A DNA stretch of 64,000 nt from an uncultured SAR86 cluster bacterium (GTDB taxonomy: Bacteria > Pseudomonadota > Gammaproteobacteria > Magnimaribacterales > D2472), in the NCBI GenBank assembly GCA_902528875.1, contig CABZTX010000004.1:5070-69069 (forward strand). Reading direction: 5' to 3'. The position numbers were made by a program, and so were the translations under genes. Positions within the stretch are counted from its first letter, which is position 1; every line of letters begins with the position of its first letter. The notes beneath the pieces were generated by a model. The model did no database searches. It was not told the DNA's origin and saw nothing but the letters and a program-made list of their open reading frames with translations. Shown here in pieces: positions 20,426 to 26,124 of this stretch.

Positions 20426-21604
20426 ATGGCAGATAAAGCATATATTGTAGAGGCAGTCAGAACTGCAGGTGGAAAAAAAGATGGCTTGCTGAGCAAATGG
20501 CATCCTTCAGACTTGGGTGCAAAAGTTCTTGATGAAATAGTAAATCGTCTTGAAATGGATCCAGCGCTTGTAGATGACGTTATATTTGGATGTGTTGATC
20601 AAGTTGGTGCTCAATCTGGTAATGTTGCTAGGAATGCTGTTTTGTCGTCATCTTTTCCAGAATCAGTTCCTGGGACTTCTGTTGATAGGCAATGTGGTTC
20701 ATCTCAACAAGCAATACATTTTGCTATACAGGCTGTAATGTCTGGAACCCAAGATATAGTTATAGGTGGTGGTGTTGAAGTAATGTCTTTAGTTCCTATT
20801 GGAGCATCGGTAATCGATGGTATGGATGCTGGTCATGGTTTTCCCTTTGATTCAAATGGAATAAAGGAGAGATATCCTGGAGTATTTTTTTCACAATTTA
20901 CAGGTGCTGAACTAGTTGCAAAAAAATGGAATTTATCAAGAGAAGATTTAGATCAATTCGCGTTGGAAAGTCATCAAAAGGCTGTAATTGCAACTGAATC
21001 AAATTTTTTTGATAAAGAAATACTACCCATCAAAGCAAAAAATGATAAAGGTATTGAAGACTTGGTAATAGTTGATGAGGGTATAAGATTTGATGCGAGT
21101 TTAGACAAATTGGCTGGACTTAAACCAGTTTCAGATGGCGGAGTAATAACAGCTGGTAATGCCAGTCAAATTACAGATGGAGCTGCAGCTGTTTTAATTT
21201 GCAATGAAGAAGGCCTTAAAAAAATTAGTGCTACACCAAGGGCTGAATTAGTATCAATTTCTGTAGTTGGAGATGATCCAGTTTACATGCTTACAGGACC
21301 AATACCCGCATCATTTAAAGCACTAGATACAGCTGGCTTAAGCATAGATGATATGGATATATATGAAGTTAATGAGGCTTTTGCTCCAGTTCCACTAGCT
21401 TGGGCGAATGAATTAAAAGCTGATAGAGCAAAATTAAATGTTAATGGTGGTGCTATGGCTTTAGGACATCCTTTGGGAGCTACTGGAGCAAAGTTGATGA
21501 CCACAATGTTGCATGAACTTGAAAGAAGAAATGGTAAGTATGCGCTTCAAGCTATATGCGAGGGCGGGGGCACAGCTAATGCAACGATTATAAAAAGAGT
21601 TTAA
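20426..21604 (+). CDS. acetyl-CoA C-acyltransferase (thiolase)
   Basis: DRQCGSSQQA (catalytic Cys), NEAF, GHPLGATG, CEGGG. Confidence 0.95.
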   Translation: MADKAYIVEAVRTAGGKKDGLLSKWHPSDLGAKVLDEIVNRLEMDPALVDDVIFGCVDQVGAQSGNVARNAVLSSSFPESVPGTSVDRQCGSSQQAIHFAIQAVMSGTQDIVIGGGVEVMSLVPIGASVIDGMDAGHGFPFDSNGIKERYPGVFFSQFTGAELVAKKWNLSREDLDQFALESHQKAVIATESNFFDKEILPIKAKNDKGIEDLVIVDEGIRFDASLDKLAGLKPVSDGGVITAGNASQITDGAAAVLICNEEGLKKISATPRAELVSISVVGDDPVYMLTGPIPASFKALDTAGLSIDDMDIYEVNEAFAPVPLAWANELKADRAKLNVNGGAMALGHPLGATGAKLMTTMLHELERRNGKYALQAICEGGGTANATIIKRV

Positions 21605-21606
21605 TA

Positions 21607-22329
21607 TTATTTTTCCCAATCAAACTTAGGCAATTCTTTGAATAAATTTCTTAATCCCTCAGACCACTTACTGGAAAGATCTGAGAAAAAAGGTGTCTTG
21701 AATTGAAGATGTTCTTCTTGAGAAATTTGAATGGTGTCTTTTTTATAGACAATTAGATCTATTGGTGGACCCACAGTTAAGTCACTTTTCATAGTAGAAT
21801 CAAATGAAACAAGCGCACATCTTGCTGCATCACCTAAGGAAGTATCGTTTCTGATTAATCTATCTAAAATTGGCTTGCCGTATTTAGTTTCACCTAGTTG
21901 AAAAAAAGGCTTTATTTCTGATGCTCTAATATAATTGCCAACAGGATATACCATCATCAAGTCAGGATCTTGTCCTTGAATTTGACCACCAATTATAAAA
22001 TTAGAACCCAAATGAGTATTAAATGATATGCCATCAGTTTTTGAATGATTCCATGATATTTGTCCAACATAATCAGCAATATCGTCAAAATTTTTACATA
22101 TATTTAAACTATTTAAGGGATTATTTGTATTCAGATCATTTTGTAAAGTTTTATATACATGTTGTGACGTTGATAAGTTTCCTGAGGTAACAATAACTAT
22201 ACATCTATCACCAACCGAATATGAGAACATTTTTTTATAGGTAGAAACATTATCTAATCCTGCATTAGTTCTTGAATCTGATACCATTACAATACCATCA
22301 TCCACTTTCATTCCAACACAATATGTCAT
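21607..22329 (-). CDS. Anbu proteasome-type Ntn peptidase
   Basis: MTYCVG...SDSRTNAG.DN.STYKK gives the Thr1/Asp17/Lys32 triad after Met removal; GNL, GGQI, QLGETKYGKPILDR, VGPPID. Confidence 0.93.
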   Translation of the reverse strand: MTYCVGMKVDDGIVMVSDSRTNAGLDNVSTYKKMFSYSVGDRCIVIVTSGNLSTSQHVYKTLQNDLNTNNPLNSLNICKNFDDIADYVGQISWNHSKTDGISFNTHLGSNFIIGGQIQGQDPDLMMVYPVGNYIRASEIKPFFQLGETKYGKPILDRLIRNDTSLGDAARCALVSFDSTMKSDLTVGPPIDLIVYKKDTIQISQEEHLQFKTPFFSDLSSKWSEGLRNLFKELPKFDWEK

Positions 22330-22413
22330 ATTTTTACTTAATTTATGAAATGACTATTCTATATTTATATAACAAAAAAATACATAATAATCATTATGTT
22401 TCCTGAGTGTCTT

Positions 22414-22422
22414 TGATAAAGT
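22414..22422 (+). promoter_or_regulatory. putative extended -10 promoter for the riboswitch/ATP-grasp transcript
   Basis: TG-A-TAAAGT, ending 7 nt before the first riboswitch nucleotide. Confidence 0.4.
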
Positions 22423-22429
22423 ATATGAA

Positions 22430-22478
22430 CGTTCATCTTTTAATAGAAGACGGAAGTAGGTGAGAGCCGAAGGAACGC
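22430..22478 (+). ncRNA. glutamine riboswitch (glnA RNA motif)
   Basis: CGTTCA-TCTTTT/AAT/AGAAGA-CGGAAGTA-GGT/GAGA/GCC-GAAG-GAACGC: P1 CGTTC:GAACG, P2, E-loop AGUA/GAA, P3 with GNRA loop; matches the glnA motif consensus as I recall it. Confidence 0.88.
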
Positions 22479-22527
22479 GATTCTTAATCTTATCTTATTC
22501 ATTTTCTATTAAGTGTATAAATTTGAA

Positions 22528-23958
22528 ATGAATAATAAAACTAAAGAAAATAAATTATTTGACGAATATTTAAACAATAAGCGATTACCTCGGCAAGGTT
22601 TTGTCAATGCTTATAATTACTTTTCAAAACTAACACCATCAAAAAAAAGATTTTTAACAAAAACTCGCGATTCAATTATTAGGTCTATGGGAGTTACTTT
22701 CAGAGTTTATGACAATAATAAGCTTATTGATAGAGACTGGCCGCTTGATTTAATACCCAGAATAATAAAGGAAAAAGAATGGATACAAGTTAAAGAGGGC
22801 CTTATACAGAGAATAAAAGCAGTAAATTTATTTATTCATGATGTCTATCATAAGCAAGAGTTCCTTAATAAAAATCCTATTTTAAAATCGTTAATCTTAG
22901 AATCACCAAATTATTTAAAAGAATGTTCTGGGATAATTCCAAAAAATAAAATATGGGCAAATATTTCTGGTACTGACTTAATTAAAGATCACCAAGGTAA
23001 TTTTTTTGTATTAGAAGATAATTTGAGAGTACCATCTGGTGTTGCTTATATGCTTGAAAATAGAAATGTAATGAAAAAGGTGGTAACAGATCTTTTTAAC
23101 AAATACCAAGTTTCACCAGTAGATGACTATACTTCTCAACTTTATACATGTTTATCAAATGCAAGTTATAGCAAGGAAAAAAATAAGACTATAGTAATCC
23201 TAAGCCCTGGAGTTTTTAATTCAGCTTACTTTGAACATGCTTATTTAGCTCAACAAATGGGTGTTGATCTTGTTGAATCATCCGATTTATTTTTATCAAA
23301 AGATAATTATGTATGTTTAAAAACTATAAATGGTCAAAAAAAAGTAGATGTGATTTACAGAAGAGTAAATGATAACTTTTTAGATCCTGAGGTATGGGAA
23401 AAAGATTCTGTTTTAGGAGTTCCAGGTATAATTAAATCTTGGAAAGAAAGAAAGATCGCTATAGTTAATGCTCCGGGCTCTGGAGTTGCAGATGATAAAG
23501 CTGTATATGCCTTTGTTCCAAAAATGATTGAATTTTTCCTTGGAGAGAAATCAAAACTCAAACAAGTAAAAACATATTTATGTGCTTTTGAAAAAGATAA
23601 GCAATATGTTTTAGAAAATATCAGTAAATTAGTTTTAAAGCCCGTAAATGAATCAGGTGGATATGGAATTTTAATAGGGCCTGGCGCTACAAAAAAAGAA
23701 TTAAGTCAATACAAATTAAAAATACAATCCAACCCGAGGAACTTTGTTGCACAACCTCTTATAAAACTCTCTACAACACCAACTCTTATAAAAACAAGTA
23801 TTCAACCAAGGCATATTGATCTGCGTCCTTTTATTTTGTCGGGCAATAAAACTTTTGTGACTAATGGAGGACTAACAAGAGTTGCTCTAAAAAAAGGATC
23901 AACTATAGTAAATTCATCTCAAGGCGGTGGAAGTAAAGATACATGGATAGTTAATTAA
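22528..23958 (+). CDS. circularly permuted type 2 ATP-grasp protein (alternative GTG start 22513)
   Basis: WPLDLIPRII, VLEDNLRVPSGVAYMLENR, NSAYFEHAYLA, VDVIYRR, GSGVADDKAVY, VNSSQGGGSKDTW. Confidence 0.93.
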   Translation: MNNKTKENKLFDEYLNNKRLPRQGFVNAYNYFSKLTPSKKRFLTKTRDSIIRSMGVTFRVYDNNKLIDRDWPLDLIPRIIKEKEWIQVKEGLIQRIKAVNLFIHDVYHKQEFLNKNPILKSLILESPNYLKECSGIIPKNKIWANISGTDLIKDHQGNFFVLEDNLRVPSGVAYMLENRNVMKKVVTDLFNKYQVSPVDDYTSQLYTCLSNASYSKEKNKTIVILSPGVFNSAYFEHAYLAQQMGVDLVESSDLFLSKDNYVCLKTINGQKKVDVIYRRVNDNFLDPEVWEKDSVLGVPGIIKSWKERKIAIVNAPGSGVADDKAVYAFVPKMIEFFLGEKSKLKQVKTYLCAFEKDKQYVLENISKLVLKPVNESGGYGILIGPGATKKELSQYKLKIQSNPRNFVAQPLIKLSTTPTLIKTSIQPRHIDLRPFILSGNKTFVTNGGLTRVALKKGSTIVNSSQGGGSKDTWIVN

Positions 23959-23959
23959 A

Positions 23960-24850
23960 ATGTTATCAAGCATCGCAGAAAAAACATATTGGCTTTCTAG
24001 ATATATTGAACGTATTGAAAATACCTCAAGATTGATAAATGTAAATTCTGACCTTCTTCTCGATATACCTCATGATGAATCAAACGATTTAAAACATCTA
24101 ATTAAGATTACAGGACATTTTGATGACTTTAAAAAAAGCAACTCAAAGGAAAATGTTTTTTTCTTTCTTATAGAAGACGAAAAAAATCCGTCTTCAATTA
24201 AATATTCAATTGAGATGGCAAAAATGAATTCAAGATATCTTTTAACAATGCTTCCTAAATCAGCTTGGGAACAATTCAACAATCTCTACTCTGATTTTAA
24301 TAATGGCGCAGTAAAGAGAAATAGCGAAGATTTGTATCAAATAATTAGAAATTCACAAAGATTTTTTGCAATTATTTCTGATGGAATGCAAAGAAATGAT
24401 GTCTTTAATTTTATAAAGTTGGGAAGATTTATTGAAAGAGCCGACATGCTTTCTAGAATTATTGAAGATCAAATTCTTAGAAAAGAAACTCATGTGAATA
24501 AATATTATCAAAATTTACAATGGAGTAGTGTTCTCAGGTCTATCAATGGATATGAATCTTTTAAAACTATAAATAAAGAGAATCTAAATCAAGAAGTAGT
24601 ACTTGGTTTTATGATAATGGAAAAATTGTTTCCAAGATCTTTAAAATATTGTGTTGATAAGCTTGTTGAAGTTCAGAAATTTTTACCGCAGTCTACAAAT
24701 ATTAAAAAAATCACAAAATCTTTATTAAGAAACCTTGAGAAAAATAATGTATATAAATACGATAAAAAAATATTAAAACATTTAGATAATTTTCAGTTTG
24801 GTTTAATTAAGTTAGATAAAGAAATTAATGAGAGGTTCTTTTCGTATTAA
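23960..24850 (+). CDS. alpha-E domain protein
   Basis: MLS..AE..YWLSRYIERIEN..R and GRFIERADM..R (two ER motifs), NPSSI, FPRSL. Confidence 0.92.
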   Translation: MLSSIAEKTYWLSRYIERIENTSRLINVNSDLLLDIPHDESNDLKHLIKITGHFDDFKKSNSKENVFFFLIEDEKNPSSIKYSIEMAKMNSRYLLTMLPKSAWEQFNNLYSDFNNGAVKRNSEDLYQIIRNSQRFFAIISDGMQRNDVFNFIKLGRFIERADMLSRIIEDQILRKETHVNKYYQNLQWSSVLRSINGYESFKTINKENLNQEVVLGFMIMEKLFPRSLKYCVDKLVEVQKFLPQSTNIKKITKSLLRNLEKNNVYKYDKKILKHLDNFQFGLIKLDKEINERFFSY

Positions 24851-26124
24851 TTTTTAAAAAAGTTTAAGATGGTTTTAATATCATCAACTGGATTCATTGA
24901 TTTATCCCCATTTCTTGCGATTAGCTCTATCTCTTTATTGTCAATATAATTTTTTCCAATAATTATATTTAACGGAATTCCTATAAGTTCTGAATCTTTG
25001 ATTTTTGAACCATAACCAACATTTCTGTCATCAAGAAGAACTGAGTAATTCATTTTTGTGAGCTGATCATACAAACTGATTGCTGCTTCAGTTATTTCTT
25101 TTTCTTTGTTATGGCCGATAGAAATAATATTTATATCAAAAGGAGATATATTATGAGGCCAAATTATTCCTTTTTCATCATAGTTTTGTTCTATAGCAGC
25201 AGCAACTAATCTTGAGACACCGATACCATAACAGCCCATGTATAATGTTGAAGCTTTGCCATCAGCATTCAAAACGTTCGTTTTCATTGACTCAGCATAT
25301 AGTTTGCCCAGTTTGAATATATGACCAACTTCAATGCCTTTTTTTATCTGAATTATACCTTTACCATCTGGTGATGGTTTTCCTTCTAGTGAGTCTATAT
25401 CTTCTCCCTCGGAAAGCAAAAGCTCTGTATTTATTGCAAATTCAGAACCATCACTTATAGCAATTGTATCTTCTCCATTCTCAGCCAATACATGGAACTC
25501 TTCTGAGCTATCTCCACCAATTGCACCTGAGTCTGCTTTTGAAATCTTAAAATCAAGTCCAATTCTGTTAAAAATTTTTTTATATGTCTCCCGCATTAAA
25601 ATATATGTTTCCTGAAGAGATGATTCATCAATATTAAAACTATAAGAGTCTTTCATAAGAAATTCTCTTCCTCTCATGATTCCATATCTTGGCCTCACCT
25701 CATCCCTGAATTTAGTTTGTATTTGATAAATATTTAAAGGGAGTTGTTTATAGCTTTTTACATTATTTCTAATAATATCTGTAATAACTTCTTCATGTGT
25801 TGGACCTAAACAAAAGTCTCTTTCATGCCTATCTTTAATTCTCAGTAATTCAAGACCCATTTTGTCCCATCTTTTAGTTTCATCCCATAATTCTTTTGGT
25901 TGAACCATAGGCATGAACACCTCTTGAGCACCAGATCCATCCATTTCTTCTCTAATAATATTTTCAATTTTTTTTAAGACTTTTAGTCCCAATGGCAACC
26001 AAGTATATATACCTGAAGCAGCTTTTCTAATCATGCCAGCACGAAGCATTAATTTATGACTAACTATTTCGGCTTCTTGAGGAGCATCCTTAAGTGTTGG
26101 TATTAGTAGATTTGAAAATAACAT
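24847..26124 (-). CDS. proS: proline--tRNA ligase lacking the INS editing domain
   Basis: SHKLMLRAGMI, LGPTHEE, QTKFRDEVRPR, REFLMKDSYSF, GIEVGHIFKLG, MGCYGIGVSR. Confidence 0.96.
   Translation of the reverse strand: MLFSNLLIPTLKDAPQEAEIVSHKLMLRAGMIRKAASGIYTWLPLGLKVLKKIENIIREEMDGSGAQEVFMPMVQPKELWDETKRWDKMGLELLRIKDRHERDFCLGPTHEEVITDIIRNNVKSYKQLPLNIYQIQTKFRDEVRPRYGIMRGREFLMKDSYSFNIDESSLQETYILMRETYKKIFNRIGLDFKISKADSGAIGGDSSEEFHVLAENGEDTIAISDGSEFAINTELLLSEGEDIDSLEGKPSPDGKGIIQIKKGIEVGHIFKLGKLYAESMKTNVLNADGKASTLYMGCYGIGVSRLVAAAIEQNYDEKGIIWPHNISPFDINIISIGHNKEKEITEAAISLYDQLTKMNYSVLLDDRNVGYGSKIKDSELIGIPLNIIIGKNYIDNKEIELIARNGDKSMNPVDDIKTILNFFKN

Follow-up and report, generated by a model that had tools for sequence, protein, structure and literature searches.

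What would a glutamine-sensing RNA be doing in front of two genes of a proteasome-associated system? The question is raised by a 64,000-nucleotide stretch of DNA (hereafter the window; contig CABZTX010000004.1 of GenBank assembly GCA_902528875.1) from an uncultured bacterium of the SAR86 cluster, in which an RNA of the glnA-motif class precedes a gene pair encoding a circularly permuted ATP-grasp protein and an alpha-E protein, next to a divergent gene for the proteasome-like protein Anbu (Table 1). Judged by its sequence, the RNA is a genuine type-1 glutamine riboswitch aptamer (RF01739), and it very probably works as a glutamine-responsive regulator of the ATP-grasp/alpha-E genes. It may do so at translation, switching the genes off when glutamine is bound, a model built on predicted folds whose chances we regard as evenly balanced.

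The identity of the aptamer is the firmest part of this answer. When the whole window was scanned with cmscan against all 4227 families of Rfam 15, two matches reached the gathering score, one to a tRNA and one to RF01739 (glutamine riboswitch, glnA motif, type 1), the latter with 61.5 bits (E 3.6e-11; gathering score 35) and spanning model positions 1-53 of 53, that is, the full model. The same match was returned by a scan of the whole assembly (G000; 1.03 Mb, 74% complete), where it is single copy. An original prediction for this locus had described a complete three-way-junction glnA motif at 22430-22478, GC-rich in an AT-rich spacer, in sense orientation and 35-50 nt upstream of the ATP-grasp start, and had proposed a check with the Rfam glnA model. 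All of this is borne out, since the covariance-model match is significant, every element listed is present, the aptamer has a G+C content of 44% against 25-30% in the surrounding spacer, and 46 nt separate the end of the match from the ATG on the same strand. This ATG (22528) is aligned with the start in homologues, whereas the GTG at 22513 that opens the mechanical open reading frame (ORF) of the gene is not conserved in them. Comparison of 16 distinct homologous leaders confirms the fold, with 99.5% of the cells for the 13 pairs of P1, P2 and P3 being standard, against 38-68% when the partners are slid, although changes in the stems are limited to UA/UG and GC/GU and this shallow set contains no double compensatory change. 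The CGGAAGUA core, the GAAG and the C after P1, all found in the window, are invariant across these leaders. In the larger set of 19 distinct intact leaders, the core is likewise unchanged, and P2 and P3 vary only to G-U-compatible pairs. Decayed relatives carry CAGAAGUU and GAUGGAACA at conserved junction positions and score 26 bits or lower.

Table 1. Features of the riboswitch locus (positions in the window)
Feature	Position	Strand	Description
Anbu (proteasome-like Ntn-hydrolase), 240 aa	21607-22329	-	Divergent from the riboswitch; Pfam Proteasome, E 1.6e-10
A/T-rich conserved block, 26 nt	22360-22385		Between Anbu and the aptamer; 1433-1458 in locus L001
Candidate promoter, extended -10-like TGnTAAAGT	22414-22422	+	TG 22414-22415, A, TAAAGT 22417-22422; conserved string, about 6-7 nt before the first base of the aptamer
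Glutamine riboswitch aptamer, RF01739	22428-22481	+	61.5 bits, full model
Aptamer P1	22430-22434 with 22473-22477	+	CGTTC with GAACG; sequence
Aptamer P2	from 22436, with 22445-22450	+	TCTTT(T) with AGAAGA; pairs 22436-22440:22446-22450; sequence
Aptamer core	22451-22458	+	CGGAAGTA; sequence
Aptamer P3	22459-22461 with 22466-22468	+	GGT, GAGA loop, GCC; sequence
GAAG of the aptamer	22469-22472	+	Sequence
Pyrimidine/U-rich switching tract	22481-22513	+	Complementary to the purine-rich aptamer
Anti-start segment, predicted	22495-22505	+	TTATTCATTTT; with the aptamer enforced, pairs with 22525-22535 (GAAATGAATAA, ATG included)
ATP-grasp protein, circularly permuted, 476 aa, first gene of the pair	22528-23958	+	PF14403, E 1.9e-147; PF04174, E 1.7e-122
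Alpha-E protein, 296 aa	23960-24850	+	PF04168, E 1.2e-63, full profile

Does the aptamer belong to the ATP-grasp gene, or does it merely lie near it in one genome? Of the 101 genomes searched in the order, which include that of the window (those of the relatives measure 0.9-1.6 Mb), RF01739 is present in 48, in 41 of them over the cut-off, and an ATP-grasp homologue in 27. Outside the order the element was not found: 149 other families of the class, represented by one genome each, all gave no match, and the only positives in the total of 151 are G000 and one further genome from the order. The pairing is concentrated in the window's genus and its sister genus, where the ATP-grasp gene occurs in 14 genomes and is directly preceded on its own strand by an RF01739 match in 13 (11 that reach the cut-off, plus G006 and G011 with 26.4 bits), leaving G039 with no match. 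In the window's genus every RF01739-positive genome (11/40, plus the window) has the element at the ATP-grasp gene. In seven other genera of the order, by contrast, RF01739 adjoins the ATP-grasp gene in none of 13 genomes, a result re-checked on 12 loci, and the longer spacers between Anbu and ATP-grasp genes in other genera (about 200-250 nt) hold no other Rfam family at the gathering score. A further 20 loci, consisting of the three closest named records (two metagenome-assembled genomes labelled 'Gammaproteobacteria bacterium', TMED225 and MED709, and one 'Rhodospirillaceae bacterium') and 17 metagenome contigs, include 16 in which the ATP-grasp gene is immediately preceded by an aptamer whose score reaches the cut-off. 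Two of the three record labels agree with the gammaproteobacterial host named in the original prediction. The survey of downstream genes suggested in the original prediction thus finds the pairing kept across the clade (13/14), and the proposal that the ATP-grasp/alpha-E pair is wired to glutamine is, computationally, well founded.

How this arrangement arose can be read from a maximum-likelihood tree of 42 ATP-grasp sequences, rooted at its midpoint, in which all riboswitch-associated genes fall into one clade (28 rows, support 100/99) whose sister consists of riboswitch-less ATP-grasp genes from two other genera of the family. The 27 distinct aligned leaders comprise 19 intact ones, three with a mutated P1 3' strand (36-37 bits), four that are mutated in the core and carry CAGAAGTT or GATGGAACA, and one with no aptamer. 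These last three classes form three separate lineages of the tree, the simplest reading of which would be one gain of the riboswitch followed by three inactivations, and the ATP-grasp ORFs stay open in the lineages where the aptamer has decayed or been lost. This history suggests a first rival explanation, namely that the aptamer in the window genome is itself a relic that regulates nothing and is heading for the decay of its sister lineages. The three independent decays or losses with intact ORFs are what such a relic would lead one to expect, and so is the accessory nature of the whole cassette, which is absent from all five near-complete genomes of the same genus that were examined. However, the window copy fits every conserved position of the model, its core is the same as that of 18 other distinct intact leaders despite their differing flanks, and the decayed copies score 26-37 bits or give no match, which argues that drift is visible where selection has gone. 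A relic is, in our view, highly improbable.

If the aptamer is in use, what does it act on? Immediately downstream lies a tract whose complementarity to the aptamer would allow the leader two mutually exclusive folds, either the P1-P2-P3 aptamer or a long anti-aptamer hairpin in which 22481-22485 pair with 22470-22474, 22488-22495 with 22458-22465 and 22502-22513 with 22439-22450. The unconstrained minimum free energy (MFE) structure of the window leader is this hairpin (28 bp, imperfect, -25.3 kcal/mol), consuming P1-3', P2-3' and P3, and the hairpin is also the MFE structure of most intact leaders. Across 16 distinct intact leaders, 87.8% of its pair cells are standard against 50-66% when slid, although the hairpin tested had been taken from a member of the alignment, a choice that biases this control, and one pair is compensatory (AU in 12, GC in 3). 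Unguided, RNAalifold recovers two of the helices, that of the P2 loop and 3' strand with UUUUUAUUA and that of AAGGA with UUCUU, and in 12/16 leaders the energy of the spacer:aptamer duplex is reached by no more than 5% of composition-matched shuffles (mean z -2.7). The anti-aptamer fold is thus well supported as conserved complementarity between sequences, and as a structure it is predicted.

An intrinsic terminator as the expression platform was considered and rejected, as no terminator-like site is found in 21500-25200; from this, translational control is inferred, and the read-out would be the initiation of translation. An alternative is that the aptamer binds glutamine and is read out otherwise, by Rho-dependent termination, RNase access or mRNA stability. 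There is no visible Shine-Dalgarno sequence before the ATP-grasp ATG, the C/U-rich leader could be unstructured and rut-like once the aptamer forms, and the lack of an intrinsic terminator excludes a classical attenuator while leaving room for Rho. Yet the 46 nt between aptamer and ATG are short for Rho loading, and the window's complementarity between spacer and start codon, described below, is better than that of 96% of shuffles. Such a read-out seems quite improbable, and translation initiation is the level at which the direction of the switch is considered here.

Folding of the window leader points towards an OFF switch. With the aptamer enforced, 11 bp form between 22495-22505 and 22525-22535, with CAU facing AUG, the mean probability that AUG..+12 is unpaired drops from 0.56 to 0.30 in the window leader (G000), and the accessibility of this region is lowered in 13/16 leaders. 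The window's duplex over the start has an energy of -9.7 kcal/mol against a shuffle mean of -5.7, and 4% of shuffles reach a value as low. In the model that these predictions outline, binding of glutamine would hold the aptamer together and leave the freed tract to pair over the AUG, turning translation off, while at low glutamine the anti-aptamer hairpin would consume the tract and leave the A-rich start region open, turning translation on. The cell would accordingly produce the ligase pair when short of nitrogen, in line with the Anbu operon of Pseudomonas putida, where Anbu has been reported to be induced or up-regulated when nitrogen is limiting (PMC5666114, PMC6376114). The class-B lineage, in which the P1 3' strand is mutated, still has its switching tract and a 477-aa reading frame that remains open, which would fit constitutive expression after loss of the aptamer.

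The opposite direction has to be weighed against the same leaders. In an ON switch on the same genes, as described for cyanobacterial gifB, the pair would be made when nitrogen is plentiful: with no glutamine, the anti-aptamer hairpin would bury the U-rich leader to about -15 and, in the window genome, GUUCAU of P1 5' would also pair with AUGAAU, blocking initiation, whereas bound glutamine would lock the aptamer and free a roughly 46-nt unstructured U-rich leader for ribosomes to load. This corresponds to the storage or tagging idea of the original prediction, whose ligation 'when N is replete' presumes an ON switch. It is in accord with the down-regulation on nitrogen depletion deduced in earlier work (Weinberg 2010, PMC2864571), with the unconstrained MFE of the window leader, which closes the hairpin with GUUCAU:AUGAAU across the start codon, and with the presence of UUCAU in P1 and AUGAA at the start in all leaders. 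Nevertheless, the helix between P1-5' and the AUG occurs in the MFE of 1/16 class-A leaders and consists of five or six weak pairs over a large loop, the accessibility of the start falls rather than rises when the aptamer is enforced (in the 13/16 leaders mentioned), lineages with a dead aptamer and intact ORFs are harder to reconcile with a leader that is OFF by default, and the reported induction of P. putida Anbu runs the other way. We regard an ON switch as possible but rather unlikely, and the leader folding, at odds with ligation under nitrogen repletion, favours glutamine as an OFF signal.

Before turning to the points that tell against an OFF switch, it is worth considering how the leader might be transcribed. 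The TGnTAAAGT element had been put forward as an extended -10 placed to start transcription at the aptamer. The string is indeed present, and of the 24 aligned leaders that extend this far and retain an aptamer or a remnant of one, 23 have a TTTGnTAnAGT-like string at the same place, but a consensus promoter scan that requires both hexamers does not list it, so that its role as the promoter of the riboswitch transcript stays a sequence-based proposal. Further upstream, the 26-nt block is found exactly (with one Y position) in 28/79 loci, all of them in the riboswitch-bearing clade and including those with a decayed aptamer. It occurs in none of the loci of other genera, and its conservation exceeds that of the coding DNA on either side; a role as promoter, UP element or operator for one or both of the divergent transcripts is probable. 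Six RNA (metatranscriptome) runs contained about 10% of the sequence words, and four of them were compared with the region, the contigs giving neither starts nor strands. One 151-nt contig covers 22452-22602 with two differences and lends weak support to co-transcription of aptamer and ATP-grasp gene. High contig depth at 22444-22480 is assigned to the riboswitch copies of other organisms because the loose ends resemble a glutamine synthetase (GS)-like leader. The ATP-grasp and alpha-E genes are for the most part uncovered, a gap that carries no evidential weight.

Several observations weigh against a working translational OFF switch and are best taken together. First, the complementarity between spacer and start beats shuffles in 5/16 leaders only, belonging to two sub-clades (mean z -1.21), which means that the anti-start helix is not clade-wide. 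Secondly, modelling of accessibility was rejected as a general predictor of direction: when P1 was enforced on 12 leaders of glnA, GS-like, gltB, Gcw_chp and DUF4278 genes, accessibility of the start barely changed, so that it is no validated predictor for leaders whose expected sign is different, and in the same comparison the effect was also small in three of five ATP-grasp leaders. Thirdly, the enforced aptamer is less stable than the predicted anti-aptamer fold by about 9 kcal/mol, a gap for which tertiary contacts, ligand binding or co-transcriptional kinetics must compensate, and covariation in its favour is thin, amounting to the single compensatory pair, in one clade. Fourthly, three decays or losses of the aptamer have left the ORFs intact, which indicates that it is dispensable in some lineages, and the genomes compared are kin, their counts describing one clade rather than independent events. 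The 151-nt RNA-library contig, moreover, extends for only 30 nt on the aptamer side and, at a depth of 2, could be DNA carry-over. Finally, the sole glutamine riboswitches tested in vivo, which are cyanobacterial, are ON switches (Klahn 2018, PMC6212724).

What, then, would the switch control? The closest solved structure to the ATP-grasp protein is PDB 3n6x (E 2.7e-141), deposited as a 'putative glutathionylspermidine synthase'. The alpha-E gene begins 1 nt past the ATP-grasp stop codon and runs 4 nt into the convergent proS. The third protein is Anbu, with phmmer matches to Anbu chains in the PDB ranging from 6.4e-69 to 2.4e-54 (designed Anbu 5loy, E 6.4e-69; Anbu 5nyj, E 3.8e-59), against about 1e-4 for archaeal proteasome beta subunits, and its N terminus reads M-T-Y-C-V-G, with a Thr directly after the initiator Met. 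In Pseudomonas, Yersinia and others, ATP-grasp, alpha-E, transglutaminase and Anbu are encoded in one operon (PMC5666114, PMC6376114, citing Iyer 2009), and it was a four-gene system of this kind that the original prediction had envisaged. Three of the four proteins are encoded side by side in the window, and a link to nitrogen status exists in both cases, but the differences are substantial. No match to Transglut_core (PF01841), the single transglutaminase family searched, was found in any of six genomes (the 74%-complete G000 and five relatives, 92-97% complete, that carry the trio), while the same search returned matches in 10/14 named genomes used as a positive control. In addition, Anbu is divergent from the ATP-grasp/alpha-E pair, in the window as in all 20 loci compared from the order, rather than the last co-directional gene, and so lies outside the riboswitch-controlled mRNA. 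The idea that the riboswitch ties the system to glutamine would hold for the ATP-grasp and alpha-E genes, which stand behind a real aptamer, and not for Anbu. By gene content and order, the system here is a reduced Anbu system, with no transglutaminase, a divergent Anbu, and ATP-grasp and alpha-E alone behind the riboswitch; its ligase half would be under the direct control of intracellular glutamine, through an RNA sensor that acts in cis on just the ligase genes, whereas the nitrogen link in P. putida is a transcriptome response.

One could go further and propose a pathway for the recycling of amino acids that is based on Anbu, in which ATP-grasp and alpha-E do the tagging or ligating and which nitrogen starvation induces through a glutamine OFF riboswitch. 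Starved mycobacteria offer a parallel in their proteasome-dependent recycling of amino acids. Although we consider this extension unlikely, it would, if true, provide the first example both of a glutamine OFF-switch in nature and of a proteasome-like system controlled by a riboswitch.

The surroundings of the cassette deserve a brief description. The convergent proS (24847-26124, minus strand) encodes a short 425-aa form of the enzyme with no inserted domain, to which long-form models match in two stretches; it scores 538.5, just below the 550 of the NCBIfam 'exception' model PRK12325, and would be unusual for a gammaproteobacterium. In the five near-complete genomes of the same genus that lack the cassette (L075-L079), thiolase and proS are immediate neighbours, with a gap between them of about 15-40 nt in four of the genomes and of about 290 nt in the fifth, and this adjacency makes the 3.2-kb cassette (21607-24850; Anbu, riboswitch, ATP-grasp and alpha-E) an accessory island.

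Elsewhere in the order RF01739 has other partners. In other genera it precedes, often in tandem, glnA, a short GS-like gene, gltB, Gcw_chp genes and a DUF4278 ORF; its presence before glnA, GS-like genes and gltB means that the ATP-grasp/alpha-E pair joins a set made up mainly of nitrogen-assimilation genes. The glnA and GS-like leaders of relatives (L003, L006, L009, L010 and L013) share a module, CGTTAAAC..GATCGAGTTTAA..TTC..CCTGCAG, after the aptamer or aptamers, followed by a clear GGAG Shine-Dalgarno sequence, a possibly structured platform that differs from the Shine-Dalgarno-less ATP-grasp leader. The string of this module is also abundant among the loose ends of the metatranscriptome contigs. 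RF01739 was likewise seen before genes for Gcw_chp-family proteins of about 200 aa with a secreted or outer-membrane look (E about 1e-19; L002 838-1431 and L016 842-1444, both from relatives), a family often found beside ammonium-transporter genes. In a relative of the same family (G055; L027 1673-1840), a tandem glutamine riboswitch precedes a 56-aa ORF of DUF4278 (E 1.1e-06), the domain of the cyanobacterial GS-inactivating factor IF17. Control of GS by such inhibitory proteins has been described as unique to cyanobacteria (Klahn 2018, PMC6212724).

How much of this is new? The aptamer is an ordinary member of its family. Like the leader of gifB in Synechocystis sp. PCC 6803 (type 1, RF01739), it occupies a 5' leader, forms a three-stem junction with CGGAAGUA as its invariant core and GAAGGAACGC as its 3' strand, and has relatives whose copies precede nitrogen-assimilation genes and a DUF4278 ORF. 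It differs from the gifB system in its host, which is a streamlined marine gammaproteobacterial lineage and not a cyanobacterium, in its target, the ATP-grasp/alpha-E pair rather than gifB or glnA, in its Shine-Dalgarno-less leader with a predicted long anti-aptamer hairpin as platform, and perhaps in its direction, gifB being ON (PMC6212724) and the window switch possibly OFF. The type-1 class was reported to be exclusive to cyanobacterial genomes (RefSeq 80) and marine metagenome sequences of unknown affiliation, the metagenomic elements, likewise unassigned, lying upstream of glnA (Klahn 2018, PMC6212724), and more recently RF01739 was listed in SAR86 deletions (2025 study, PMC12379486). 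Neither paper appears to mention an association with ATP-grasp, alpha-E or Anbu, and no published report of RF01739 with any of the three was found, a statement on which the supplement of Klahn 2018, with the downstream genes of the metagenomic elements, may bear. The original prediction, which knew of no description of the pairing, stands as regards the riboswitch, but the nitrogen link of the Anbu operon is already known from P. putida and is not new. What appears undescribed is a cis-acting glutamine sensor on ATP-grasp/alpha-E genes.

For the Anbu system, such a sensor is of more than descriptive interest. Structures have been available since 2017, yet no substrate and no activity beyond ATP hydrolysis by the ATP-grasp protein have been reported for the operon (PMC6376114). 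A metabolite-sensing RNA before the ligase genes would be direct evidence, independent of any protein, of the signal that the system answers to, and it narrows the search for a substrate to glutamine- or nitrogen-linked chemistry. The leader, of about 130 nt, is a simple handle for work in vitro and in E. coli despite the uncultured host, and with the riboswitch the function of the ligase pair beside Anbu becomes easier to test. For the riboswitch class, an order with 48/101 positive genomes gives a proteobacterial owner to the glutamine riboswitches of 'marine metagenomes', as the 2025 study of SAR86 already hints, and, if the direction is indeed OFF, the known logic of the class would be extended.

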